In this document: positions 7,257-17,630 of the stretch, in pieces
Layout of the letters: every line of letters starts with the position of its first letter
How positions within the stretch are numbered: position 1 is the stretch's first letter
Sequence record: NC_052654.1
Strand: one strand, 5' to 3'
Length of the DNA stretch: 64,000 nucleotides
Origin: Escherichia phage vB_EcoM-Ro121c4YLVW
Translations under genes and position numbers: made by a program
Notes under the pieces: generated by a model
Told to the model about the DNA's origin: nothing
Database searches by the model: none
The model's input: the letters and a program-made list of their open reading frames with translations, nothing else

Positions 7257-7691
7257 ATGTTACAAGTTCCTGCTAAGTTTGTTGAAGGCGCTATCCACTC
7301 TTACCGTCAAACATGTAAGAGGGCAAGAAACTGTTTAGATGGTCTGGTGGCAAAAACCTATACTGTTGAAAAGAAGAAACGTTGGTTTGGCAAAGATGTT
7401 TACGAAGTTAATATTTTTGGTGAACATAAACTAAACCACGATACTCCTGAAAACATGTTAGAAATATTTCTAAGAGATGACAAAATATCTCCTATGGATT
7501 ACCAACTTTTAAAATTTTATGATTCTTCTTTGGCTATTGATAAGTTTGTTGAAGATATTCTGTCTAGAAAAACAGATAAAAACACTTATCCTCTAGAGGC
7601 TGATCAAATAGGATTATTAAACGAGATTTCATCCTTTAAAGAGTTGGATAATATTACAAAAGAGGAGATTTTAGATGGCATTAGATTATGA
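7257..7691 (+). CDS. hypothetical protein
   Basis: ORF track 144 aa. Confidence 0.5.
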   Translation: MLQVPAKFVEGAIHSYRQTCKRARNCLDGLVAKTYTVEKKKRWFGKDVYEVNIFGEHKLNHDTPENMLEIFLRDDKISPMDYQLLKFYDSSLAIDKFVEDILSRKTDKNTYPLEADQIGLLNEISSFKELDNITKEEILDGIRL

Positions 7692-8184
7692 TCGCCCAAC
7701 GAGCGATTATTATCCGACACCGCAAAAAGCAATCAATAGTTTGTTTAGTGTTATAGATTTCAAAAATCTAAAGGAAGAAGGTTGGGTTTTTGCAGAACCT
7801 TGCAGAGGTGAAGCTGAAGCGATTTATCGCCATTTTCCTGAAGGTTCAGAATATTGCGAACTTGAAGAAGGTAAAGATTATTTTAGTCATGAATGGGAAA
7901 ATCGTCCCGACATTATAATCACAAATCCTCCATTTAAGTTAGCAATGGAGTTCTTGGAAAAGAGCTTAAAAGAGGCGGATGTTTGTATTTATCTTCTTCG
8001 GTTGGGCTTCTTGGAGTCAAAGAAACGACGAGAGTTCCATCAAAAGAATCCACCAACAAACCTTATAGTCCTTTCAGAACGGCCTTCGTTTGTTGCAGGT
8101 GGAACAGATAAGACAGCATACGCTTGGTATGTATACGACCCAAAGAATCGTTTGGGCCTCTCTCAACCATTTTATTTTGTTTAA
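7675..8184 (+). CDS. SAM-dependent methyltransferase, N6-adenine DNA MTase-like
   Basis: DYYPTP and catalytic NPPF motifs. Confidence 0.5.
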   Translation: MALDYDRPTSDYYPTPQKAINSLFSVIDFKNLKEEGWVFAEPCRGEAEAIYRHFPEGSEYCELEEGKDYFSHEWENRPDIIITNPPFKLAMEFLEKSLKEADVCIYLLRLGFLESKKRREFHQKNPPTNLIVLSERPSFVAGGTDKTAYAWYVYDPKNRLGLSQPFYFV

Positions 8185-8681: not shown

Positions 8682-8876
8682 ATGCAGAGCGGAGAAGAAC
8701 TTTTAGAGAAACAATTCTCAACGCGTCAACAAGCTTTAAGTTATATGGTTTTTCTAAGCAATCTTGATGTGAATGAGATACTTTTACGGCGCGAAGGTAA
8801 TTTCTGGAGCGTTAAATATCATGCAACAAGGTCTGTAATCTACCTGGAAGAGGCGGAATTCTCTTTGGTAGAATGA
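8682..8876 (+). CDS. hypothetical protein
   Basis: ORF track 64 aa; RBS AAGGAGGG. Confidence 0.4.
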   Translation: MQSGEELLEKQFSTRQQALSYMVFLSNLDVNEILLRREGNFWSVKYHATRSVIYLEEAEFSLVE

Positions 8877-8890
8877 TCCGAGGAGTAGTT

Positions 8891-9463
8891 ATGCGTTCAA
8901 CTTTCACTGGCAAAATAAATGCTGGTTTGATTTTTACAGCAGTAAGCATTCTTAGCAAAAAGTTTAAAGTTGTTAACTTACCTGTGTGTGTCGATTTCGA
9001 TCATGTTTTTGATCCTTCGAACCCCACTCGTTGCATAGTAAGGAGTAATGTTGAAAACCCAACAGAAAATCTTTTTTATGTAACAAAACCATCTCAAAGC
9101 ATACTTAACCAGGTTGAGGCGAAATTGATACCTAACGGTAAATATTACTCCTTTTTACCTTGTAAGTCGGTTGAAGTAGAGAATAGCAATACTTTCGCTA
9201 ATAACTTGTCTGTATTCGTTTTCTTTGTTTCACAGGAAGACGAAACAGATGAAATGGTAGCAACAGTGAGATCACTTTATGACTCTTTAGGGGTTGTTTA
9301 TAGTCAACAGGTGTGCGAAAATAATAAATCCTGTGTAGATTTCATTATCAACGGTATTTGTGTTTGTAGAGTAGAATCTTTTTGGCTGCACGATACATAT
9401 GTGACTGTAGCAGAGGTTATATCTGAACCAAGATTTAGTCATGCGGTTTCGTTAATAATTTGA
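8891..9463 (+). CDS. hypothetical protein
   Basis: Start moved to ATG after GAGGAG; 190 aa. Confidence 0.45.
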   Translation: MRSTFTGKINAGLIFTAVSILSKKFKVVNLPVCVDFDHVFDPSNPTRCIVRSNVENPTENLFYVTKPSQSILNQVEAKLIPNGKYYSFLPCKSVEVENSNTFANNLSVFVFFVSQEDETDEMVATVRSLYDSLGVVYSQQVCENNKSCVDFIINGICVCRVESFWLHDTYVTVAEVISEPRFSHAVSLII

Positions 9464-9473
9464 GGAGGAAGGA

Positions 9474-9803
9474 ATGGAAATTACTACAGAACAAGCCCTT
9501 ATCGACGAGGGTCGTAAAATCTTAGAAAAGTATTTAGGGGAGATTCATAAAACCCCTGGCTATTTGGGTTGGAGAATTGTTGAAGCTGTAGATTTCCTTC
9601 CTCGTAACAGTAAAAGCGTCGAAATGCGATCTCTTTTCTTATTAGTAAAGGTGGACGGGGATACACCTTTTAAAGATGCCGCAGAACATATTGAAAAAGT
9701 TGAAGAGAAAGCTTATGCAGAATTTGCCGATCTTGTTTTAGAACAAGAGATTGAAGGAAAGGTGAATATTTTTATTTTCTTAGATTTTGAGGAGGATAAG
9801 TGA
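9474..9803 (+). CDS. hypothetical protein
   Basis: ORF track 109 aa; RBS GGAGGAAGG. Confidence 0.45.
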   Translation: MEITTEQALIDEGRKILEKYLGEIHKTPGYLGWRIVEAVDFLPRNSKSVEMRSLFLLVKVDGDTPFKDAAEHIEKVEEKAYAEFADLVLEQEIEGKVNIFIFLDFEEDK

Positions 9804-10543
9804 TCATACACAGAGAAATTACTGTTAAAAGCGATCAAGATCTTTTTATAATTGGAGATCTACACGGTTGTTATAATTTGTATGAAAAAGGAAAGGCAAA
9901 GTTAGGTATCCGAGATACAGATGTGGTTGTATCTCTAGGAGATCTTACTGACCGTGGAAAGCAAAACTTTCGTTGTGTTTTAGAATTTACTCGTAAACAC
10001 AATCGCTACGCTATTCGTGGCAATCATGAAGACATGATGATTAAAGGTATGCTGGAAGGAGATCGTAGCTACTACGAGTGTTGGTATCAAAATGGAGGAT
10101 ATACGGTCTTTGAAGAATGTGGTGAAGAAGGAGCTACAGCCTTAGCAATGATGACAGAAGATTTACCTGTTGTTCTCATTGTTAACTACAGAGGCATGAA
10201 ACTTGCGTTTATTCATGGTGGGTATCCATCTTCTTTGGAATATCTCCCTGTAACAGATATTCCAGAATACATTTCGAAGATGACAAAAACACAGGAAAAC
10301 CGTTTTGCTGAAGCACTTATGTGGGACAGAGATATGGTAGACTGTGCTAAAGAGGGAATGAAACTTCCTGTTGTGATGGGTGTGGATTATGTGTTTCATG
10401 GACACTCTTATGTAAAAACACCTATTATCAATGCGAATCGTGTTTATATGGATACTGGATCTGTGTTCAATAATAACTTAACATTTGCTTATTTCGATAT
10501 GGACGGTGGTCTTCAATTTTATTCAACTCTTGAGGAGGATTAA
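9800..10543 (+). CDS. Ser/Thr protein phosphatase (calcineurin-like metallophosphoesterase)
   Basis: GDLHG, GDLTDRG and GNHE metallophosphatase motifs in canonical order. Confidence 0.75.
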   Translation: MIIHREITVKSDQDLFIIGDLHGCYNLYEKGKAKLGIRDTDVVVSLGDLTDRGKQNFRCVLEFTRKHNRYAIRGNHEDMMIKGMLEGDRSYYECWYQNGGYTVFEECGEEGATALAMMTEDLPVVLIVNYRGMKLAFIHGGYPSSLEYLPVTDIPEYISKMTKTQENRFAEALMWDRDMVDCAKEGMKLPVVMGVDYVFHGHSYVKTPIINANRVYMDTGSVFNNNLTFAYFDMDGGLQFYSTLEED

Positions 10544-10851
10544 TGTATAAGATTACAATTATTCAAAGTGTAGGTAATATCCGTAAAGAAGTTATCTTAG
10601 AAACAGAAGATGTTAATCTTGTTCGTGAGATTGTTCTTAAGGAAGATAACCTGCAAGCTGTAGAATCAGATGCACCGAATCTTATGGTGGATCAAGAATA
10701 TTCTGAACTTCGTCGTATTTTTGAAGAGATTCAGAAGAAAGAAACACAACCTACCATAAAACCTTTTGGCCCTTATGATCCGAGCAATCCTAGCAGTCCT
10801 TGGATCATGAGAAATACGGAACCCTATACACCTTTTGAAATTACTTGTTGA
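10543..10851 (+). CDS. hypothetical protein
   Basis: ORF track 102 aa. Confidence 0.4.
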   Translation: MYKITIIQSVGNIRKEVILETEDVNLVREIVLKEDNLQAVESDAPNLMVDQEYSELRRIFEEIQKKETQPTIKPFGPYDPSNPSSPWIMRNTEPYTPFEITC

Positions 10852-10858
10852 GGTGATT

Positions 10859-11440
10859 ATGGCAGAACTGTTCTATACGGGAGTTGGAAGTAGAGACATA
10901 TCCGAAGAAGAGTGGGCTTTGATGGTAGGCATAGGGAAATGGCTTTCAAACCTTGGGTTTAAATTAAGGTCTGGGAAGGCAGAGGGTAGTGATTCTGCTT
11001 TTGAAACAGGTGTCCAAGAGTCTGAAAATCCTACTAACAAGGAGATTTATGTTCCTTGGGAAAATTTCAAAGGTAATCAGATTCCAGGGGATGTTATTGT
11101 TCTTGCAAAACCAGATACAATGAACTATGCTATCTCTGTGCAATGGATCAAAGATGTTCACCCAGCCTATGAAAAGCTTAAGCAGGGTGCTAGAAAATTG
11201 CACCAACGTAATGTGCATCAAGTGTTAGGTAGAGATTTGGAGAATCCTGCTCCATCATGTTTCTTGTTGGCTTGTGCTAATACTGATAAACATGGAGATG
11301 CAAAAGGTGGAACAGCTACGGCTTGGAAGATAGCTAAAGCCAATAATGTTCCTTGTTTAAACATTCGTGGGAAAACAAAACAAGAGATTTACGATTTTCT
11401 ACGACCTTTGGTAATGAGGGCAATAACAAGTGATTCCTAA
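10859..11440 (+). CDS. DprA/Smf-like Rossmann-fold (SLOG superfamily) protein
   Basis: GVGSR...SGKAEGSDSAFETG...QRNVHQVLG...GGTATAW pattern resembles the DprA core (GSR, SGxAxGxD, RNR); start at ATG after GAGGTGA. Confidence 0.45.
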   Translation: MAELFYTGVGSRDISEEEWALMVGIGKWLSNLGFKLRSGKAEGSDSAFETGVQESENPTNKEIYVPWENFKGNQIPGDVIVLAKPDTMNYAISVQWIKDVHPAYEKLKQGARKLHQRNVHQVLGRDLENPAPSCFLLACANTDKHGDAKGGTATAWKIAKANNVPCLNIRGKTKQEIYDFLRPLVMRAITSDS

Positions 11441-11942
11441 ACGTAAACGTGGTGAACAAAGAACAAACTTGGCAGAAATCTTAGATTACAACATGGTTAA
11501 TGATGTGACAAAAGAAATTCTGCCTGTTGTAGAAGATATTCTTCAAAGAGGGTTACGATTCTGCTCGGATCGGGTGCATTTCATGTGGACACATAAAAGT
11601 GACTCCGCTTTGAATTTCTATCCTTTGGATTATACTCTGAACAATACAGAGATGAAAGATATCAACAAATACTTAATGGGATATAAAGATATAACCGAAA
11701 CCGTTCTTGGAGAATTGGCAGAAATCTTGGCTAACGATATCCTTAGAAATATTAATAAGGCTCTTGACAGAAGCCCAGCAGGAGTAGTAGTATCTTTTGC
11801 TGTGCCAGATATGGTTAAATATGAGTCTACAATACCTAATAAAGCTTATGCCTTTCTTCGGAGAGACGTTCGTGGAAATGTGTTGGAGATGGAGTCAAAC
11901 TACAAGATTGAGGAGGTTTTATGGCAGAGTTCGGATCAGTAA
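11430..11942 (+). CDS. hypothetical protein
   Basis: ORF track 170 aa. Confidence 0.4.
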   Translation: MIPKRKRGEQRTNLAEILDYNMVNDVTKEILPVVEDILQRGLRFCSDRVHFMWTHKSDSALNFYPLDYTLNNTEMKDINKYLMGYKDITETVLGELAEILANDILRNINKALDRSPAGVVVSFAVPDMVKYESTIPNKAYAFLRRDVRGNVLEMESNYKIEEVLWQSSDQ

Positions 11943-12211
11943 CAAGTTTTGAAAGTAACTTCGTTACCGCTTGGGAAGCTTGGGATGAAATGGGTGTTGG
12001 GGAACTTTATTTTTACAATGTAACACTACGTCCAGAGTATGCTTACCTGGTACCAGAAGGAACAGTTCAAATTGGCATGTATCTGTCTTCTCAAGACGGT
12101 GTTGTTCAATTTGAGTTTTATTCAAACACAACGGACAACGAATTTACATATCGTGCATTTCATGTCAACATGTCTTTAGGAGAGGAGAAATTTTATGACG
12201 ACCAAGTTTAA
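11921..12211 (+). CDS. hypothetical protein
   Basis: ORF track 96 aa; RBS GAGGAGG. Confidence 0.4.
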   Translation: MAEFGSVTSFESNFVTAWEAWDEMGVGELYFYNVTLRPEYAYLVPEGTVQIGMYLSSQDGVVQFEFYSNTTDNEFTYRAFHVNMSLGEEKFYDDQV

Positions 12212-12392
12212 AACAGTAGAAGAAGCCGTAAAAGCAGCTTATGAGGCTTTAGCGGAAGCAGAGCAGTTAGCAGATGAGACTGGTAAAGGTTTCCGTTTCT
12301 CCCCTGAATATGGGATGGGTGGCTATTATGATCCAGAAGATGAAAATGAGAATACTGGAACAAATTGGCATCCATCTTCTTTAAGTTGTTAA
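12195..12392 (+). CDS. small acidic protein, C-terminal W-x-SSxSC motif (family member 1)
   Basis: 65 aa ending NWHPSSLSC. Confidence 0.45.
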   Translation: MTTKFKTVEEAVKAAYEALAEAEQLADETGKGFRFSPEYGMGGYYDPEDENENTGTNWHPSSLSC

Positions 12393-12403
12393 TAGGAGGT
12401 AGA

Positions 12404-12679
12404 GTGGGAATCGAAGATATCAAAGGTTATAAGGCGCATACTGACGATAAGATTGGCAAGGTTAACGCTATTAAAGATGCAGAAGAGCGTTTAGGTTTAA
12501 TCTTCAAAGCTTTAGAGGAAGAGTATTGTGAAGCATATCATGGGTCTTTTGACGGCACAGAAAAAGAATTAGGTCTTGCATACGAACGTATTGATCAAAT
12601 CCGTTGTGCTATTAGACATTTAAAAGAAGCTAGTATGTGGGCTTGTCGTTCAGTTTTCCAACCAGAGGAGAAATACTAA
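12404..12679 (+). CDS. hypothetical protein
   Basis: GTG after TAGGAGGTAGA; 91 aa. Confidence 0.4.
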   Translation: MGIEDIKGYKAHTDDKIGKVNAIKDAEERLGLIFKALEEEYCEAYHGSFDGTEKELGLAYERIDQIRCAIRHLKEASMWACRSVFQPEEKY

Positions 12680-12897
12680 TGAGTGATCGTAATGTTGAAG
12701 AATTAACTGAAAAAGCCCAAGCTATTATGGCTTTAGTGGACGAACTTACAAAAGAAGCTGAAGATGCTGGTTTTGGTCTTAGTTTAGAAAATGACGCAAT
12801 CTGTTTTGAAGATTGGCAATCCTCTTCTTGTTATGGTGAAGGTGATGATGGTTTCGTCGTTAATTCTCAAGGTGTTTGGCACAGTAGTAGCTGTTAA
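12679..12897 (+). CDS. small acidic protein, C-terminal W-x-SSSC motif (family member 2)
   Basis: 72 aa; internal DWQSSSC and terminal VWHSSSC. Confidence 0.45.
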   Translation: MSDRNVEELTEKAQAIMALVDELTKEAEDAGFGLSLENDAICFEDWQSSSCYGEGDDGFVVNSQGVWHSSSC

Positions 12898-12906
12898 GGA
12901 GAGATT

Positions 12907-13179
12907 GTGGAGTCTGAAGGCGAACTGCTGATAAAAAAGAAAGTTAAAGAGATGGAACAAGCACAAAGAAAGTTTCGTAAGGAGATTGAAGAACTTTGTG
13001 AACAGTTTCAGGAACAAGCTTGGATAGGTGACTACGGTAACGGAGAAACTTATTACCCTACAGGAACGCCAGCCGCAGATCACTATATTGATTTCATTTG
13101 TGAAGATTATGGTGTAGAGTTGGATGAAAATGGTTTAACCACAAGAGGTGTTTGGATCTCTTCTTCCTCAATGTGTTAG
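12907..13179 (+). CDS. small acidic protein, C-terminal W-x-SSSSMC motif (family member 3)
   Basis: GTG start after TAAGGAGAG; 90 aa ending GVWISSSSMC. Confidence 0.45.
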   Translation: MESEGELLIKKKVKEMEQAQRKFRKEIEELCEQFQEQAWIGDYGNGETYYPTGTPAADHYIDFICEDYGVELDENGLTTRGVWISSSSMC

Positions 13180-13186
13180 TAAATAA

Positions 13187-13211
13187 TAACCCGCTTCGGC
13201 GGGTTTTTTAT
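13187..13211 (+). terminator. Rho-independent terminator
   Basis: aacccgcttcggcgggtt hairpin plus ttttatt. Confidence 0.7.
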
Positions 13212-13269
13212 TGACAGGAATCTGGAAGCTTGATAAACTTAACCTATCAACCAATAGAGGAGAAATATT

Positions 13270-14211
13270 ATGGTGTTAATTGGTAGCCGTGCATTGCAAA
13301 TTCATGCTATGGACATGGGAAAAGACTTGTATCGCCCTTGTGTAGATTTAGATTACCTGTGTACAGAACAAGAGTGGGAAGAATTATCAAAAATGTTCTC
13401 TCAAGAGGAGTTTGTTGAACTTGTAGAACGTAAAGGAAACAAAGGCCATGTCAAAATGATAGCTGGTGCACATTTGGAATACGATATTGCTTCTCAAGGA
13501 GATAGCACAGAAGCTTTGATTAGTTATTGTGAAGATTCTGATGATGTTCGTCGAACTTACGCTGGACATGTTGTTGCTCCTTTAGATGTGCTCTACCTTC
13601 TTAAAATGAGTCATCGTTTTAAAAAGGATAGTCCTCACTTCTTTAAAACTATGAAAGATATTCATTTCATGCGGTCACTGGGCGCAAAGATCCCAGAAAA
13701 TCTTAAGAGTATTTATGAGTTGCGTGAGAAAGAAACATACACTTACTCTCATCCGAACTTAAACGTAAAAAGTAAAGACTTTTTTAAAGGTGATGAGGTT
13801 CCGTATGTTTATGATCATGATTCTATCCATGAAGCAATCGCGGTAATGGATGCTCCGGCATATAAATCTTATATGAAAGATGGAAGTGAAGTTATGACCA
13901 GCAAAGAAAAGTTTTTTGCTCAACCAAAACATGTGCGCCTGTTAGGTGTTTATGAAGAAGCGTGTGTTTTGGCTTTGGAACGTTCACAAATTCCTTTCGG
14001 TGGAGAGATCGGAGGTCCAACCCCTAAGCAAAGTTTTATAATGGCTTTATCTAAAGTCTGCACATCCATCACTAGTGGTTGGTTTAGGGAATATGCTTGG
14101 GAAAACTTTTATGTTGTTATTAAGCTATATGAAAACATGGGCGAAAACGACTATGTTGAACGTTTTAAAGCTAATCAACATGTAGTAAAGCCTTTTGAAG
14201 GAGGTTATTAA
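13270..14211 (+). CDS. hypothetical protein, possibly Pol-beta-type nucleotidyltransferase fold
   Basis: N-terminal GSRAL...DLD resembles the GS...DxD NTase signature (weak); 313 aa. Confidence 0.45.
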   Translation: MVLIGSRALQIHAMDMGKDLYRPCVDLDYLCTEQEWEELSKMFSQEEFVELVERKGNKGHVKMIAGAHLEYDIASQGDSTEALISYCEDSDDVRRTYAGHVVAPLDVLYLLKMSHRFKKDSPHFFKTMKDIHFMRSLGAKIPENLKSIYELREKETYTYSHPNLNVKSKDFFKGDEVPYVYDHDSIHEAIAVMDAPAYKSYMKDGSEVMTSKEKFFAQPKHVRLLGVYEEACVLALERSQIPFGGEIGGPTPKQSFIMALSKVCTSITSGWFREYAWENFYVVIKLYENMGENDYVERFKANQHVVKPFEGGY

Positions 14212-14212
14212 T

Positions 14213-14608
14213 ATGTGTGGATATCTTTCAGAAAGTTATTTCAAAGTGACGCACGAGGATTTAGAAAAAGCACGATTGAAACTGACAGCTATTATTGAAT
14301 ACTCTAATACTGTTGATCACAGATTAAAGACTACTAAAGTATCTGTTCCTTGTTGGTTAGGTTTACGGCATAAAATAATGTCTCAACATGACCATGTTGT
14401 TCGAGAGATGCATGGTTGGTGTTGGTTTCACGATGTGGCTCTGCATTTTGGTTATATTACAGAAGAAGAGCATAGATTCTGTGAACTAACATATCGTATT
14501 CCAACCCTTCACGATTTAGATTTGTGGAAGAAAGCAAACGAGATTTTTCTTACAGAAAGTGATTGGCGTAAAGTTATGGCTTGTCTTGAATGGAGGGGTA
14601 ATGAGTAA
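14213..14608 (+). CDS. hypothetical protein
   Basis: ATG after AAGGAGG; 131 aa. Confidence 0.45.
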   Translation: MCGYLSESYFKVTHEDLEKARLKLTAIIEYSNTVDHRLKTTKVSVPCWLGLRHKIMSQHDHVVREMHGWCWFHDVALHFGYITEEEHRFCELTYRIPTLHDLDLWKKANEIFLTESDWRKVMACLEWRGNE

Positions 14609-15284
14609 AACAGTTTTGTCTATGTTTGACGGATCTGGGATCATGGTGTTACGTTATGCCGAAGCAGGTCACAAGTGTTTTTGTGTAAACGCTGATGAAG
14701 GGGATCACGGTAAATACGAGGTTAGGATGGAGCACCCAAACATAACCTATGTGAATGCCTGGATAGATTCTACATTCAACCCTGAAGATCATGGGATACC
14801 TAAACCCGATATTATTTTTGGATTTCCACCTTGCACTATGTTAGCAGGTAGTGGTAGCAAACACGAACGCAGCACAGAGGAATTGGATGAAGCTTTAGCT
14901 AATATTCGTGTAGTGGAAGCTTTGGGTAACAAATATAATGTTCCTTGGATGATTGAGAACCCAGTAGGTAAACTTTCAACCTTATGGCGTAAACCCGATT
15001 TTTACTTTGATCCTTATGAGTATGGTGGGTATTTGTTTGAAGAGGAAGGAAGCTTTCATCCTAAAATGCCTACCCGTGATGGGTATACAAAGAAAACTTG
15101 TATTTGGCACGGCAATGGTTTTGTTCAACCAGTGAAGAAACCAGTAGATCATATAGGCTGCTTCTGGGGTTGGAAAAGCTTAGGTGGAGCTAGTGCAAAA
15201 ACAAAACAACTTAGATCACTAACCGCACGTGGTTTTGCTCGTGCAGTGTTTTTGTCTAACAATCTTCTAGATAAGGAGAAATAA
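14601..15284 (+). CDS. C5-cytosine DNA methyltransferase-like
   Basis: Motif I LSMFDGSG, motif IV FGFPPC, motif VI ENP; start after GGAGGGG. Confidence 0.6.
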   Translation: MSKTVLSMFDGSGIMVLRYAEAGHKCFCVNADEGDHGKYEVRMEHPNITYVNAWIDSTFNPEDHGIPKPDIIFGFPPCTMLAGSGSKHERSTEELDEALANIRVVEALGNKYNVPWMIENPVGKLSTLWRKPDFYFDPYEYGGYLFEEEGSFHPKMPTRDGYTKKTCIWHGNGFVQPVKKPVDHIGCFWGWKSLGGASAKTKQLRSLTARGFARAVFLSNNLLDKEK

Positions 15285-15937
15285 TGTTAAATTCAAAACC
15301 AGTGGTTGCTTATCAAGTAGATCGTAATGATGGTGAAGGAAGTGTTGTTATTTTCAGTACACACGGTCTTGAGGCTCGTCGAAAAGGTGCATATCGTTTA
15401 GAATGTGAGTTTGAAGACTGCACAAGCCACCGTGTCAAACAATTCGATCAATATGCTGATAAAGGCTTCGTCCCTATCAAAGCGTTACTGGAAGATGGTT
15501 GGTGGGTATATTCTGCTTTTGATTACTCAAAACTGGAGGAGTCAGCTTCGTGCGCCTCCGAGATCGAATATGATGATTACTATGACACTCTATACCTTCC
15601 AGAATGGCTTGTCTTTTCTCCTGATGAGAGAAGTGTCTGGAAAACGTGGGAAGAAATGGAGAGACATGCGTATAGCATCAATGAAGCTTTAGATCGTAAA
15701 ACTTGGTTTATTGAGGCAGTAAAGGCGGCATACCCCCAATTCTCATTCTGTGATTTCACTGGCGGCCCAGGATACATTACACATACAGCCTCTTTTGAGT
15801 TTCCTGGTTCACGTTATAAGGGTAATGTTTATTGGGACTGGGATGAAAATAAACAACCTTCGGCTCAAGACTTCCGTTGCTATGTTTGTCAAGGCGATCA
15901 AGAAGCCCTTGACAAATACCTACAAAATCTGGTATAG
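15284..15937 (+). CDS. hypothetical protein
   Basis: ORF track 217 aa, coupled to MTase gene. Confidence 0.45.
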   Translation: MLNSKPVVAYQVDRNDGEGSVVIFSTHGLEARRKGAYRLECEFEDCTSHRVKQFDQYADKGFVPIKALLEDGWWVYSAFDYSKLEESASCASEIEYDDYYDTLYLPEWLVFSPDERSVWKTWEEMERHAYSINEALDRKTWFIEAVKAAYPQFSFCDFTGGPGYITHTASFEFPGSRYKGNVYWDWDENKQPSAQDFRCYVCQGDQEALDKYLQNLV

Positions 15938-15954
15938 TGCCAGCATCTGAACAA

Positions 15955-15984
15955 AGCCTCCTGTTTCAGGGGGCTTTTCTTTTA
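15955..15984 (+). terminator. Rho-independent terminator
   Basis: gcctcctgtttcagggggc hairpin plus ttttctttt. Confidence 0.55.
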
Positions 15985-15995
15985 TAGGAGGGAAT

Positions 15996-16481
15996 ATGTT
16001 TCAAGTAAATGTCAATGTGCATAATAGTTACTCTGATTGTGAAACGTGTGGCTATAATTCATCTAATGTTATTCGTATTAGTGGCGATTTAGGAGAAGCT
16101 TCTTTTGGAGAAGAAGCAAGTTGCTTTAGTGGTATGGATGCAGAATGGAATGATATTGCACATTGGTTAGTGAGCAAACTAAAAGAAAAAGAGAAACCAT
16201 TTCCTACTCTGCTTGATCGTTCTCTTGTGGAAGATGCAGGTAAAGCATATGCAGACTATGCGTATGCAGACGGGAAATATTTGGAAGATGATAAGGCTAA
16301 CCATTTGCTTTATGTTTACTATGAAGCTGAATCTGCCTACGATAATTATTACAGCATGTCTAACATCCTACGTCTGTTTGCAGAGTTTGATATTTATTTC
16401 GAAGTAGAATTTTCAGAAGATGATACTTACGAGTACAATTCTTATGATCCATTTGAGGAGGAAGAATGCCAAGACGAGTGA
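15996..16481 (+). CDS. highly acidic protein (possible DNA mimic)
   Basis: 161 aa, D/E/Y-rich C-terminal half; overlaps Sir2-like start by 16 nt. Confidence 0.45.
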   Translation: MFQVNVNVHNSYSDCETCGYNSSNVIRISGDLGEASFGEEASCFSGMDAEWNDIAHWLVSKLKEKEKPFPTLLDRSLVEDAGKAYADYAYADGKYLEDDKANHLLYVYYEAESAYDNYYSMSNILRLFAEFDIYFEVEFSEDDTYEYNSYDPFEEEECQDE

Positions 16482-17281
16482 TTTTTGTAAGCGGTGCAGG
16501 TTTAAGTGCAGACAGTGGGATTCGAACATTTAGAACAGACACAGATAGTGGTCGTGCTTTATGGGAAGAATATGATTTAGAAGAGGTCTGCGATATTGGA
16601 GCTTTCCAAGCAGGTTATCGTGTTAGAACATCTCCAGATCTTCCAGTGGTCGGTGGTGTAGACGAGAACGGTATGGATTTGTATGCCAAAACACACGAAT
16701 TTTATAACAAAAGACGTGTTGAGCTTAAAGATGTACAACCTAATGCTGCACATATTCAAATAGCAAAGTGGTTTAAGGAATATCCTAACCAAATAGTAAA
16801 CTTGACAACAAACGTTGATGATCTACTAGAGCGAGCAGGTGTAGACAGAGATTCTGTTATTCACGTACACGGATATCTTCCTGAAGTAGTTTACCGTATG
16901 CATCCCGGAGATTACAAAACACTGGTAGATATTGGTTACAATAGTATAAACATAGATGATTATAACTGGGTGAAGCCTAATGTTGTATTTTTTGGTGAGG
17001 CTGCACCTTTGTATGCAGATATGGCTCACTTGTTCGATACTTTGACCATGCAAGATTTGGTTGTAGTAGTAGGATGTTCAAACCAAGTTATCAATTTTAA
17101 TTGGGAATTATTTCCTGCACTTAGTATGGGTACAAAAATGGTTGTAGTTAACCCTGGAGTTAATTACGAAGAAACACTTCTCTATGAAGATCGTGGAGTT
17201 TTTGTTTACCGAGAAAAAGCTGCAACAGCCTTCAGCAATGAAGGTTTCATTAAAATGGTCGAAGACCACTTAAACAAATAA
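16466..17281 (+). CDS. Sir2-like (sirtuin-family) NAD-dependent protein
   Basis: GAGLSADSGIRTFR NAD-binding motif, HVHG and VVVGCS motifs. Confidence 0.65.
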   Translation: MPRRVIFVSGAGLSADSGIRTFRTDTDSGRALWEEYDLEEVCDIGAFQAGYRVRTSPDLPVVGGVDENGMDLYAKTHEFYNKRRVELKDVQPNAAHIQIAKWFKEYPNQIVNLTTNVDDLLERAGVDRDSVIHVHGYLPEVVYRMHPGDYKTLVDIGYNSINIDDYNWVKPNVVFFGEAAPLYADMAHLFDTLTMQDLVVVVGCSNQVINFNWELFPALSMGTKMVVVNPGVNYEETLLYEDRGVFVYREKAATAFSNEGFIKMVEDHLNK

Positions 17282-17288
17282 ACCACTC

Positions 17289-17312
17289 AAGGGGCTTCGG
17301 CCCCTTTCTTAT
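17289..17312 (+). terminator. Rho-independent terminator
   Basis: aaggggcttcggcccctt plus tcttatt. Confidence 0.6.
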
Positions 17313-17598: not shown

Positions 17599-17630
17599 AC
17601 AAAGGCACCCAAGTGGGTGCCTTTTCTATT
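17599..17630. terminator. bidirectional terminator at convergence of + and - blocks
   Basis: aaaggcacccaagtgggtgcctttt hairpin with A/T runs on both sides. Confidence 0.6.

Follow-up and report, generated by a model that had tools for sequence, protein, structure and literature searches.

The Acb2/Vs.4 family of phage proteins sequesters CBASS cyclic dinucleotides by an established mechanism, and NARP1 is known to counteract defence by NAD+ depletion. Iyer et al. proposed roles in NAD-derived signalling for phage SIR2 and SLOG domains, both of which are found in the Thoeris SIR2-SLOG effector ThsA. We analysed a window of 64,000 nucleotides from Escherichia phage vB_EcoM-Ro121c4YLVW (NC_052654.1), in which an initial annotation had marked five rightward genes at 9800-17281 as one module and proposed that its SLOG-like binder and sirtuin interfere with host NAD/ADP-ribose signalling. 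Unlike in ThsA, the two phage domains lie on separate genes, 5 kb apart and in different predicted transcription units. The comparison with ThsA and other defence SIR2 NADases fails further: the phage genes are not co-distributed, the phage Sir2 is deacylase-like and matched no defence-type SIR2 model in a PADLOC search, and the motifs of the SLOG protein are of DprA type. The flagged stretch is probably a patchwork of accessory genes, each with its own distribution, in at least three units, not one functional module. Its gene content is ordinary and previously annotated, and the earlier functional reading was mostly wrong; our survey of gene identities, folds, motifs, terminators and distributions adds two modest leads that we regard as new, the Cys-tail proteins upstream of the nucleotidyltransferase and the position of the DprA-like gene, in other phages, after a NARP1-like pair and a Macro-domain gene.

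The rightward arm and its predicted transcription units

The source phage is a Phapecoctavirus (a phAPEC8-like E. coli myovirus). The whole 7482-base flagged stretch is 99.8% identical to that in vB_EcoM-Ro121lw and others; its five flagged ORFs correspond to CDSs annotated in over 60 published Phapecoctavirus genomes, where four of the five gene names had already been given, and an ORF listing placed all five on the + strand where the initial annotation had put them. The stretch is the distal end of a rightward arm of nucleotide-metabolism and auxiliary genes, comprising NrdA/B, glutaredoxin, PhoH, an HslV-like peptidase and then others up to Sir2. A strong predicted bidirectional terminator (17601-17624), matched by annotation in phage Schickermooser, closes the arm, and the sign of the GC skew switches near 18 kb.

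Judging from predicted terminators, the flagged part of the arm is divided into at least three transcription units, with two strong predicted intrinsic terminators between the DprA-like gene and Sir2. The first (13188..13205, +; a 7-bp stem with 5 GC pairs, and a T-run) would end the phosphatase/DprA-like/Acb2 unit; an ARNOLD terminator is annotated at the matching place in Schickermooser, and a promoter-like site (13211-13239) follows directly. The second (15953..15977, +; an 11-bp stem with 6 GC pairs, and a T-run), also annotated in Schickermooser, would end the nucleotidyltransferase/methyltransferase unit. A further strong predicted intrinsic terminator, again with a matching annotation in Schickermooser, lies 3' of Sir2 (17289..17306, +). 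Unit 1 (~7.3-13.2 kb) would carry an N6-adenine methyltransferase, the phosphatase, the DprA-type SLOG protein, an Acb2 sponge and three Cys-tail paralogues. A MenT/AbiEii-like nucleotidyltransferase and a C5-cytosine methyltransferase-like enzyme would fall in unit 2 (13.27-15.94 kb), and in unit 3 (16.0-17.28 kb) translation of an acidic protein would be coupled to that of a CobB-like sirtuin. Read-through past the predicted terminators might nonetheless allow co-expression of the units, whose genes all lie on one strand and probably belong to one temporal class.

The biochemical activities and physiological targets proposed below for all of these genes are predictions from sequence. The flagged phosphatase (9800..10543, +) is a lambda-type (NinI/PrpA-like) Ser/Thr enzyme (Pfam Metallophos E 2.7e-13; PHROG 246 E 1.8e-75; NCBIfam PrpA/PrpB-type 9.6e-27; lambda Ser/Thr phosphatase, PDB 1g5b, E 5.5e-27) with the motifs GDLHG, GDLTDRG and GNHE, and would act by dephosphorylating proteins of the host or the phage. 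A small gene resembling N6-adenine DNA methyltransferases, with an NPPF motif (7675..8184, +; PHROG 799 E 2.8e-59; PADLOC MTase_II E 3.6e-4), lies beyond the flagged span but would share a transcription unit with the phosphatase and DprA-like genes; among the best 80 viral loci, 20 have a homologue within ~3.8 kb of the DprA-like gene.

The C5-cytosine methyltransferase-like protein (14601..15284, +; 227 aa, compact) matched PHROG 757 (E 1.8e-84), PADLOC type II (MTase_II)/DruM cytosine methylases (E 1e-4) and, across motifs I-IV, M.HaeIII (E 0.08), and FDGSG, P-x-C and ENPV are all invariant in the family alignment. Because a Pfam search gave no match and a family profile search of the PDB gave none either, this call, though it holds, is the weakest of the five; the enzyme may serve self-methylation against restriction. 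Three hypothetical proteins accompany these genes: one of 131 aa (14213..14608, +) that is lineage-restricted, matched PHROG 16551 only, had no match in a Pfam search and occurs in 6 of 62 Sir2 loci; one of 217 aa (15284..15937, +; PHROG 8514; 12 of 62 Sir2 loci) that accompanies Sir2 solely in the Stephanstirmvirinae-like lineage; and an acidic one of 161 aa (15996..16481, +; PHROG 9509 only; 6 of 62 Sir2 loci) whose ORF overlaps the Sir2 start by 16 nt.

The co-location noted by the initial annotation stands, and it is lineage synteny; a single functional module is not borne out by the separate units and independent distributions. Sir2 occurs in 61 viral loci (T5-like, rV5-like and Stephanstirmvirinae-like), about 47 of which carry no other flagged gene within 10 kb, and the loci that do (about 13) belong to one lineage only. 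The block of N6-methyltransferase, phosphatase and DprA-like genes is inverted relative to the block of nucleotidyltransferase, Dcm-like and Sir2 genes in six loci, and two loci lack the nucleotidyltransferase and Dcm-like genes. In T5, the Sir2 gene (T5.102) adjoins nrdD. Conversely, the DprA-like gene occurs in at least 476 viral contigs, and of the best 80 loci only 7 have Sir2 within 10 kb of it. Host profiles also differ: the 973 phage records with Sir2 come mainly from phages of Escherichia, Salmonella and Klebsiella, the 897 with the DprA-like gene mainly from phages of Pseudomonas, Aeromonas and Vibrio.

A stand-alone DprA-type SLOG protein

The DprA/Smf-like call at 10859..11440 (+; 193 aa) was correct: the protein has a SLOG (Rossmann) fold and retains the two motifs by which ssDNA-binding DprA domains are defined, each invariant in the family. 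Its sequence gave no Pfam PF02481 match at E <= 0.01, and it shares 15-17% identity with the DprA/Smf Rossmann domains of H. pylori, S. pneumoniae and R. palustris. In contrast to DprA/Smf and the DprA-like antitoxin ShosA, it is single-domain, without a SAM or winged-helix/DML1 domain, and has the additional conserved features P-W and GGTATA; it also lacks the C-terminal helix of ShosA and had no match to the PADLOC ShosA model. Most likely, it would bind ssDNA or a single nucleotide through the conserved GSR and LxxRN pocket and act as a mediator of recombination or DNA protection. The initial annotation had set an ordinary DNA-binding DprA against its own reading, and the protein comes close to that description, as it keeps both ssDNA motifs and the LOG catalytic motif PGGxGTxxE, for which we searched it, is absent.

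The DprA-like protein alone may instead have a nucleotide- or ADP-ribose-related role, since a NARP1-like pair and a Macro gene lie directly upstream of it elsewhere. PAK_P1-like phages and related ones carry the gene immediately 3' of a Prs-like/Nampt-like (NARP1-like) pair and a Macro-domain gene. Prs-like, Nampt-like, Macro and DprA-like genes cluster repeatedly on the same strand, in 10 loci, and in another five a NAPRTase-family or Macro gene lies no more than ~2.2 kb away. The DprA pocket has room for a single nucleotide base, as would suit a protein of NAD+/ADP-ribose salvage or signal removal that does not bind DNA. However, most of these loci may come from a few related lineages, and therefore the clustering could be plain synteny; the neighbours in rV5-like phages (RNR, glutaredoxin and PhoH) belong to general nucleotide and DNA metabolism; and a published comparative analysis assigns phage DprA to recombination. 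With the DprA signature motifs invariant and the LOG motif missing, we regard the salvage or signal-removal role as possible but doubtful, and prefer the DprA-type assignment.

An Acb2-family sponge and a nucleotidyltransferase beside Cys-tail proteins

A gene at 12404..12679 (+), which the initial annotation missed, has a GTG start preceded by a GGAGG ribosome-binding site and encodes a 91-aa protein of the Acb2/Vs.4 family of cyclic-dinucleotide sponges (Pfam PF24729 Acb2_Tad1_hairpin, E 5.8e-17; 62 bits against a gathering cut-off of 27). It matches T4 Vs.4 (7uq2) over its full length (E 1.4e-28, 64% identity) and keeps all of the Vs.4 cGAMP-contact residues (Y8, H11, K23, R79 and F82), as well as those hexamer-interface residues that were compared (L29, F33, A73 and A77), whereas its central loop (residues about 36-60) is divergent. 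T4 Vs.4 lies among regB, vs.3 and vs.5; the gene here lies among Cys-tail paralogues. From its conserved ligand residues, the protein would be expected to sequester CBASS cyclic dinucleotides, and this predicted homologue is the sole established immune-signal sponge in the stretch. The general theme of a phage countering nucleotide-based immunity does hold here, through Acb2.

The three surrounding paralogues are small acidic proteins with a characteristic end: ...NWHPSSLSC (12195..12392, +; PHROG 899 E 1.2e-12), ...GVWHSSSC (12679..12897, +; PHROG 899 E 1.4e-5, with a family HMM match) and ...GVWISSSSMC (12907..13179, +; PHROG 899 E 5.1e-14, family HMM E 2e-22). The W, the S and the terminal C are invariant in the family alignment, and in 65 of 80 diverse phage loci the nucleotidyltransferase gene is immediately preceded by genes for proteins ending in W-x-x-S-S-x-x-Cys.

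That nucleotidyltransferase (13270..14211, +; 313 aa; DUF7277 and DUF7275), previously listed as a possible Pol-beta-type enzyme, can now be placed in the Pol-beta superfamily with a MenT/AbiEii-like fold and intact catalytic residues, although at the sequence level Pfam and PDB searches matched it neither to AbiEii/DUF1814 nor to a PDB chain. It differs from MenT/AbiEii (DUF1814) toxins, ANT(2'') and LnuA in being phage-encoded and in its 200-residue helical C-terminal domain (DUF7275), which has many invariant His and Asp. Unlike the toxins, it has no AbiEi/MenA-type antitoxin, and its conserved neighbours are the Cys-tail proteins. These may be its partners, and leading guesses for its substrate are RNA or tRNA 3' ends or the Cys-tail proteins themselves. 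Ho et al. (preprint) described phage MNT-like NTases, from phages BCP1 and Av05, that make competitor cyclic dinucleotides and adjoin methyltransferases and NAD genes; Av05 is a phAPEC8-like phage, as here. A motif scan found their motif, GS-x-AY[GAN]T-x4-SDxD, nowhere in the window, and the spacing in the 13270 protein differs (GS, 19 residues, DLD); it therefore represents another NTase family.

Read together, the flagged genes might form an anti-defence island in which each acts against some host system: the methyltransferases against restriction, Acb2 against CBASS, the phosphatase against kinase-based defence, the DprA-like protein by standing in for ShosA, the unstable antitoxin of Shosta, and Sir2 against acylation- or NAD-based defence. 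Two orphan methyltransferases and a member of a proven anti-CBASS family do lie within 8 kb, anti-defence genes are known to cluster, and the preprint reports phage NTases beside methyltransferases and NAD genes. We nevertheless consider the island as a whole unlikely: Acb2 is the one gene whose counter-defence role is specifically supported, the gene families have unrelated distributions, the DprA-like protein lacks the ShosA features, and genes of plain metabolism (RNR, glutaredoxin, PhoH and rhamnose enzymes) share the arm. A mosaic of independent accessory genes accounts better for this mixture.

A CobB-like sirtuin

The Sir2-like call (16466..17281, +; 271 aa; Pfam SIR2 E 1.9e-22) also proved sound, and the protein is a CobB-like, class III-type sirtuin. 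E. coli CobB (1s5p) was the top PDB match (E 7.6e-19, or 1.4e-24 with the family profile); all top PDB matches were deacylase sirtuins, and the NCBIfam matches were CobB-type deacylases only, with scores under curated cut-offs. It shares GAGxSxxSGIxxFR, (T)xNxDxL, the catalytic HG, FGE and GxS with E. coli CobB and human SIRT5. Across 25 family members GAGxSxxSG..FR, TTNVDD, HG, Y80..R83, FFxE and GxS are invariant, and Y80/R83 align with CobB Y92/R95, the class III Tyr/Arg acyl-lysine pocket. In contrast to CobB and SIRT5, the gene is phage-borne and stand-alone, the TQN motif has Thr for Gln, and a 25-30 residue insertion follows the first NAD motif in this protein and part of the family. 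All four zinc-ribbon cysteines are missing from the 25 members; because canonical sirtuins depend on these to fold the small domain, the chemistry could differ from that of CobB. Most likely, the protein would be a protein lysine deacylase that depends on NAD+, with deacetylase or desuccinylase activity towards proteins of the host or the phage; from its sequence, a signal-responsive NADase is unlikely.

The lost cysteines and the variable insertion (residues 47-76), which point to a remodelled substrate-binding small domain, would also fit ADP-ribosyltransferase activity, or NAD+-dependent processing of nucleic-acid ends, in host takeover or RNA repair. In T5, a protein with a HAD_SAK_2 'Swiss-army-knife RNA repair' domain is encoded in the Sir2 operon, and in rV5-like phages genes for an AAA_33 kinase-like protein, a metallophosphoesterase and an ATP-dependent ligase flank Sir2. 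However, the YxxR acyl pocket, catalytic His and complete NAD+ motifs are invariant, the rV5-like ligase is probably the replicative one, and neighbours vary between lineages, none being conserved across them. We regard such an activity as quite improbable and retain the deacylase assignment.

The weakest reading is the original one, in which SLOG binds ADP-ribose-derived signals (for example Thoeris gcADPR) while Sir2 consumes or remodels NAD+/ADPR: the NARP1-like pair and Macro gene upstream of the SLOG family elsewhere, the proposals of Iyer et al. and the Acb2 sponge in the same region favour it, but it is very unlikely given the intervening terminators, adjacency confined to one lineage, the CobB-like pocket of Sir2, the intact DprA motifs, a similarity to ThsA-SLOG that is the weakest among the SLOG matches, and a window in which no NARP or Macro homologue was found. 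In T5, the Sir2 gene (T5.102) adjoins nrdD.

Gene content and layout of the rightward arm

The source phage is a Phapecoctavirus (phAPEC8-like, Stephanstirmvirinae), an E. coli myovirus of roughly 150 kb, and the 7482 bases at 9800-17281 (+) share 99.8% identity with vB_EcoM-Ro121lw and with some 60 further published genomes. Their gene content was known and annotated before: public records list a 'NinI-like serine-threonine phosphatase', a 'DprA-like DNA recombination-mediator protein', a 'DNA methyltransferase' and a 'Sir2 (NAD-dependent deacetylase)', so that four of the five names agree with the initial annotation, and the fifth gene, the nucleotidyltransferase, is entered as a 'hypothetical protein'. 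All five open reading frames were recovered where the initial annotation had placed them. The observation is confirmed; its interpretation, that a SLOG-like binder and a sirtuin jointly disturb host NAD/ADP-ribose signaling, is only partly supported. Interest remains in a zinc-less CobB-like phage sirtuin, an Acb2 homolog, a pairing of small Cys-tail proteins with the nucleotidyltransferase, and clusters in other phages that join a NARP1-like (Prs/Nampt) NAD+ salvage pair, a Macro protein and a SLOG protein.

The stretch forms the distal end of a rightward arm that starts with NrdA/NrdB, rhamnose-pathway enzymes, glutaredoxin, lysozyme, PhoH and an HslV-like peptidase and closes at convergent terminators at ~17.6 kb, where the sign of the GC skew flips; beyond this point lies a leftward arm of small genes of no assigned function. 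Strong intrinsic terminators were predicted on the plus strand at 13188-13205, 15953-15977, 17289-17306 and 17601-17624, and the same sites were found independently by the annotators of phage Schickermooser. A sigma-70-like site, TTGACA-18-TATAGT (11/12; the best in the region), lies just 5' of the hairpin at 15953-15977 (span 15909-15977 (+)), and a transcript from it would begin at or within that hairpin. Upstream of the phosphatase, RefSeq gives the gene at 8873-9463 (+) the name 'histidyl tRNA synthetase' on the basis of PHROG 4806, a name that looks unreliable given no Pfam support at E <= 0.01; no tRNA genes were found in the window.

Two of the five assignments concern enzymes of familiar type. 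The Ser/Thr phosphatase (9800-10543 (+)) is lambda-type, matching Pfam Metallophos at 2.7e-13 and lambda phosphatase (1g5b) at 5.5e-27 over residues 10-230, with the motifs GDLHG, GDLTDRG and GNHE (reference GDxHG, GDxxDRG, GNHE) readable in the translation. The C5-methyltransferase-like protein (14601-15284 (+); 227 aa) also holds up, as the softest of the five calls. It keeps the residues of motif I (FxGxG), motif IV (P-C, with the catalytic Cys) and motif VI (ENV), as FDGSG, FP-x-C-T and ENPV, none of which varies among 8 homologs. It aligns with M.HaeIII motifs I and IV at a weak E of 0.08, and its PADLOC cytosine-methylase matches (E 1e-4) cover residues 1-126 only; it has no match to Pfam PF00145, and its family profile found no methyltransferase in the PDB.

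An Acb2 homolog and a nucleotidyltransferase with Cys-tail neighbors

The interval from the DprA-like gene to the nucleotidyltransferase contains a 91-aa open reading frame (12404-12679 (+)) with a GTG start after GGAGG, entered in RefSeq as a 'hypothetical protein'. Its product matches Pfam PF24729 'Acb2/Tad1 hairpin' at 5.8e-17 (62 bits; cut-off 27) and T4 Vs.4 (7uq2) at E 1.4e-28, residues 3-91 aligning to 3-89, with a full-length identity of 64%. The hexameric Vs.4 sponge counteracts CBASS and binds 3'3'-cGAMP with an affinity of about 30 nM, contacting it through Y8, H11, K23, R79 and F82; its interface includes L29, F33, A73 and A77 (PMC10097602). In the pairwise alignment, all five cGAMP-contact residues and these four interface residues are identical in the phage protein. 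Together, the Vs.4 match and the identical ligand residues argue that the stretch does hold an immune-signal sponge and that, as predicted from sequence, this sponge is the Acb2 homolog and not the SLOG protein. An unannotated Vs.4/Acb2 anti-CBASS homolog in phages that are therapeutic candidates bears on host-range prediction.

Around the Acb2 gene are three small acidic paralogs of PHROG 899 (12195-12392, 12679-12897 and 12907-13179, all (+)), which we call Cys-tail proteins after their shared C-terminus, ...W-x-x-S-S-(x-x)-Cys-stop. The gene that follows them (13270-14211 (+)) proved to be a Pol-beta-type nucleotidyltransferase, as first proposed, with hG[GS]...[DE]x[DE] and a third carboxylate on an NTase fold. 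Pfam gives only DUF7275 and DUF7277, with no sequence membership in DUF1814/AbiEii; the family profile found no match among PDB sequences and a PADLOC scan none either, and only fold comparison produced matches that support a MenT/AbiEii-like assignment. MenT/AbiEii systems carry a cognate AbiEi/MenA antitoxin, whereas the neighbors of the phage enzyme are the Cys-tail proteins instead.

This arrangement recurs widely. Among 80 nucleotidyltransferase loci (L146-L225 of the viral loci fetched for comparison) from T4-like (165-177 kb), jumbo, phAPEC8-like and ~100-kb metagenomic phages, a tandem array of one to five Cys-tail genes stands on the same strand directly 5' of the nucleotidyltransferase in 65, and the terminal cysteine is present in 146 of 151 copies. 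In an alignment of 24 Cys-tail sequences just four positions are invariant, namely the initiator Met, one Trp, one Ser and the Cys at the C-terminus, and a central YGMGGxYY / YGNGETYYP-like motif is frequent. When a Cys-tail HMM was run against 141 loci fetched for other purposes plus the window, only 8 sequences matched, each with the nucleotidyltransferase immediately downstream. Of the 80 loci, 21 have Acb2 no farther than 7 kb away; in T4, which has Vs.4, the region examined gave no BLAST-level relative for either partner.

A functional link in which the small proteins act as substrates, regulators or antitoxin-like partners is plausible. More specifically, we tentatively suggest, as a possibility short of an even chance, that the small proteins, with their W-x-x-S-[SA]-x-x-Cys-COOH ending, and the nucleotidyltransferase form an undescribed, widely conserved phage two-component cassette, the paralogs being substrates or regulators of the enzyme. 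If they are substrates, the nucleotidyltransferase might nucleotidylylate their Ser-rich tail, by analogy with MNT enzymes, which AMPylate HEPN partners. Because Acb2 adjoins, the cassette could serve counter-defense or translation control. Literature searches found nothing on the pairing, and neither for DUF7275 nor for a phage MenT-like enzyme did they return a functional study. The conserved pairing is a concrete, testable lead to new phage-host biochemistry. Two sets of candidate relatives were rejected: none of the window's six frames contains the motif of the Av05/BCP1 competitor-CDN NTase (Ho et al.), and T4 NrdC.11 and the vs.4 neighbors vs.3 and vs.5 have no similarity to the nucleotidyltransferase or the Cys-tail proteins.

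The DprA-type SLOG protein

DprA domains that bind ssDNA, of Rossmann fold (Pfam PF02481), are defined by G-[STA]-R in the beta3-alpha3 loop together with [FLY]-x-x-R-[ND] in helix alpha6, and LOG proteins, of the lysine-decarboxylase-like nucleotide hydrolases, are set apart from them by PGGxGTxxE (Wang et al., PMC3950713). The phage protein (10859-11440 (+)) has both DprA motifs: across 45 sequences G10 and R12 never vary and S11 is kept in at least 90%, and in the second motif, L114-H115-Q116-R117-N118, residues H115, R117 and N118 are invariant. The LOG motif is absent, the aligned segment reading K-G-G-T-A-T-A-W-K, with no G-T-x-x-E. By these motifs the DprA/SLOG assignment stands, and the proposed role in ADP-ribose signaling fares worse: the initial annotation had named retention of all DprA DNA-binding features, together with no ligand binding, as evidence against it, and since the DprA motifs are kept and the LOG motif is missing, the protein appears by its sequence to lean towards DNA binding. 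Iyer et al. assigned phage DprA/Smf proteins to recombination, as an extra ssDNA binder. Sequence comparison with the PDB returned noise only (selenide water dikinase, E 0.94) and a PADLOC scan gave no match.

The alternative that this protein has, by itself, a nucleotide- or ADPR-related role is rather unlikely, and draws its support from other phages. In PAK_P1-like and related phages (~90 kb), the order RNA ligase, Prs-like, Nampt-like, small ORF, Macro, small ORF, DprA-like occurs on one strand (L113 4649-10576; also L104, L112, L114, L122-L124, L126, L131 and L141), giving 10 loci with the RNA ligase/Prs-like/Nampt-like/Macro/DprA-like gene order, and a further five loci place a NAPRTase-family or Macro gene at most about 2.2 kb from the DprA-like gene. 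These clusters hint at a link of this SLOG family with NAD+/ADP-ribose metabolism and are a further concrete, testable lead to new phage-host biochemistry. The window itself holds no NARP or Macro homologs, and in rV5-like phages the DprA-like gene neighbors RNR, glutaredoxin, PhoH, a ClpP-like protein and a small N6-methyltransferase. A related reading makes the SLOG protein an accessory of NAD+ reconstitution that handles ADPR signals, or a substitute for ShosA, a close structural neighbor of the phage protein and a DprA-like antitoxin that binds ssDNA via the same arginines; we consider it less likely than the Cys-tail cassette.

As a separate observation, 20 of 80 loci (among L064-L125) have a small N6-adenine methyltransferase-like gene (7675-8184 (+) in the window) no more than about 3.8 kb from the DprA-like gene; it is placed upstream of the latter in the Stephanstirmvirinae-like phages and downstream of it in the rV5-like ones.

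The Sir2-like protein and the proposed joint unit

The Sir2-like assignment (16466-17281 (+)) is well founded (Pfam 1.9e-22; CobB 7.6e-19, or 1.4e-24 by profile). Its 60 best PDB matches are all CobB, archaeal Sir2, Sir2Tm, SIRT5, SIRT2 or SIRT3, with no defense SIR2 structure among them; NCBIfam returns CobB-type families only, and no PADLOC family matches at E <= 0.01. Defense-type SIR2 NADases (ThsA, DSR1/2, SIR2-HerA, SPARSA) are recognized by a match to defense SIR2 profiles and by fusion or an operon with a sensor domain; the phage protein is stand-alone, at 271 aa. By sequence comparison, it resembles bona fide deacylases, not defense NADases.

The motifs GAGLSADSGIRTFR, TTNVDD, HVHG, FFGE and GCS vary little or not at all among 25 family members and align with CobB. 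They correspond to the class III reference set (GAGxSxxSGIPxFR, TQNxD, HG, FGE, GTS), with Q replaced by T in the TQNxD motif (TTNVDD). Y80-x-x-R83 is invariant in the same 25 members and aligns with 'FYNARR' of CobB, whose Y92 and R95 confer desuccinylase and related activities (PMC6636992). None of the 25 aligned members has any of the four zinc-ribbon cysteines of canonical sirtuins, or indeed any cysteine, between the HG and FGE motifs, whereas CobB has C...C..CC in the segment aligned to this cysteine-free small domain, and a variable insertion of 25-30 residues (residues 47-76 here) is found in only some members, this protein included. From the CobB-like matches, the invariant motifs, Y80/R83, the loss of cysteines and the insertion, we read the protein as a putative CobB-like NAD+-dependent lysine deacylase with a remodeled small domain. 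Such a zinc-less sirtuin is present in about 970 sequenced enterobacterial phages, T5 among them. Literature searches found no functional study of a phage Sir2, and knowing which proteins it deacylates would lead on to asking whether phages reset the acylation of host proteins. A very acidic, lineage-restricted 161-aa ORF without family annotation (15996-16481 (+)) overlaps the Sir2 start by 16 nt, which suggests translational coupling.

On present evidence, the proposed functional unit of Sir2 and SLOG does not exist: two terminators separate the genes, they are not co-inherited, and their hosts differ. The terminators at 13188-13205 and 15953-15977 keep the DprA-like gene (in a unit of ~7.3-13.2 kb) apart from Sir2 (16.0-17.28 kb). 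We compared 61 viral Sir2 loci from T5-like, rV5-like, Mydovirus-like, Stephanstirmvirinae-like and a few jumbo phages; other genes of the 9800-17281 set lie within 10 kb of Sir2 in only ~13 of them, all from this phage's lineage and near relatives. Even there the order varies, since six of the ~13 have the block N6-methyltransferase...phosphatase...DprA-like inverted with respect to the block NTase-Dcm-like-217-aa ORF-Sir2, and the nucleotidyltransferase and methyltransferase are absent from two. Of 62 loci, 15 had a DprA-like gene near Sir2, most of them from the Stephanstirmvirinae-like lineage; two of the 15 lie outside the main lineage and carry distant homologs (31-35% identity) 7-8 kb off. 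Conversely, the DprA-like family spans at least 476 viral contigs, and among the best 80 only 7 have Sir2 within 10 kb. The rV5-like genomes contain both genes, about 20-24 kb apart, and in T5 Sir2 (T5.102) adjoins nrdD. De novo clustering of Sir2 neighbors yielded no partner conserved across lineages.

Among 50,697 phage records, Sir2 occurs in 973, mainly from phages of Escherichia (372), Salmonella (289) and Klebsiella (131), and the DprA-like gene in 897, mainly Pseudomonas (231), Escherichia (124), Aeromonas (85) and Vibrio (79). Fusion, co-transcription or co-inheritance, the marks of a Thoeris-like SIR2 and SLOG pair, were not found for the genes of this phage. As worded in the initial annotation, joint action of the two proteins would have meant a new phage strategy against Thoeris-type NAD signaling; the evidence is unsupportive, and we regard such action on NAD/ADPR signaling as very improbable.

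Elsewhere, Sir2 surroundings take other forms. In rV5-like phages (L008 6728-13594) the genes on either side of Sir2 encode a metallophosphoesterase, an AAA_33 kinase-like protein, an ATP-dependent DNA ligase and a MazG-like (PRA-PH) protein, surroundings unlike those in T5 or in this phage. In T5, we rejected T5.105 (L063 7589-8095) as a Sir2 partner: RefSeq labels it 'Sir2 (NAD-dependent deacetylase)', a probable annotation error, as it is actually HAD_SAK_2 (Pfam 4e-20), and it lies in one operon with the true T5 Sir2, T5.102.
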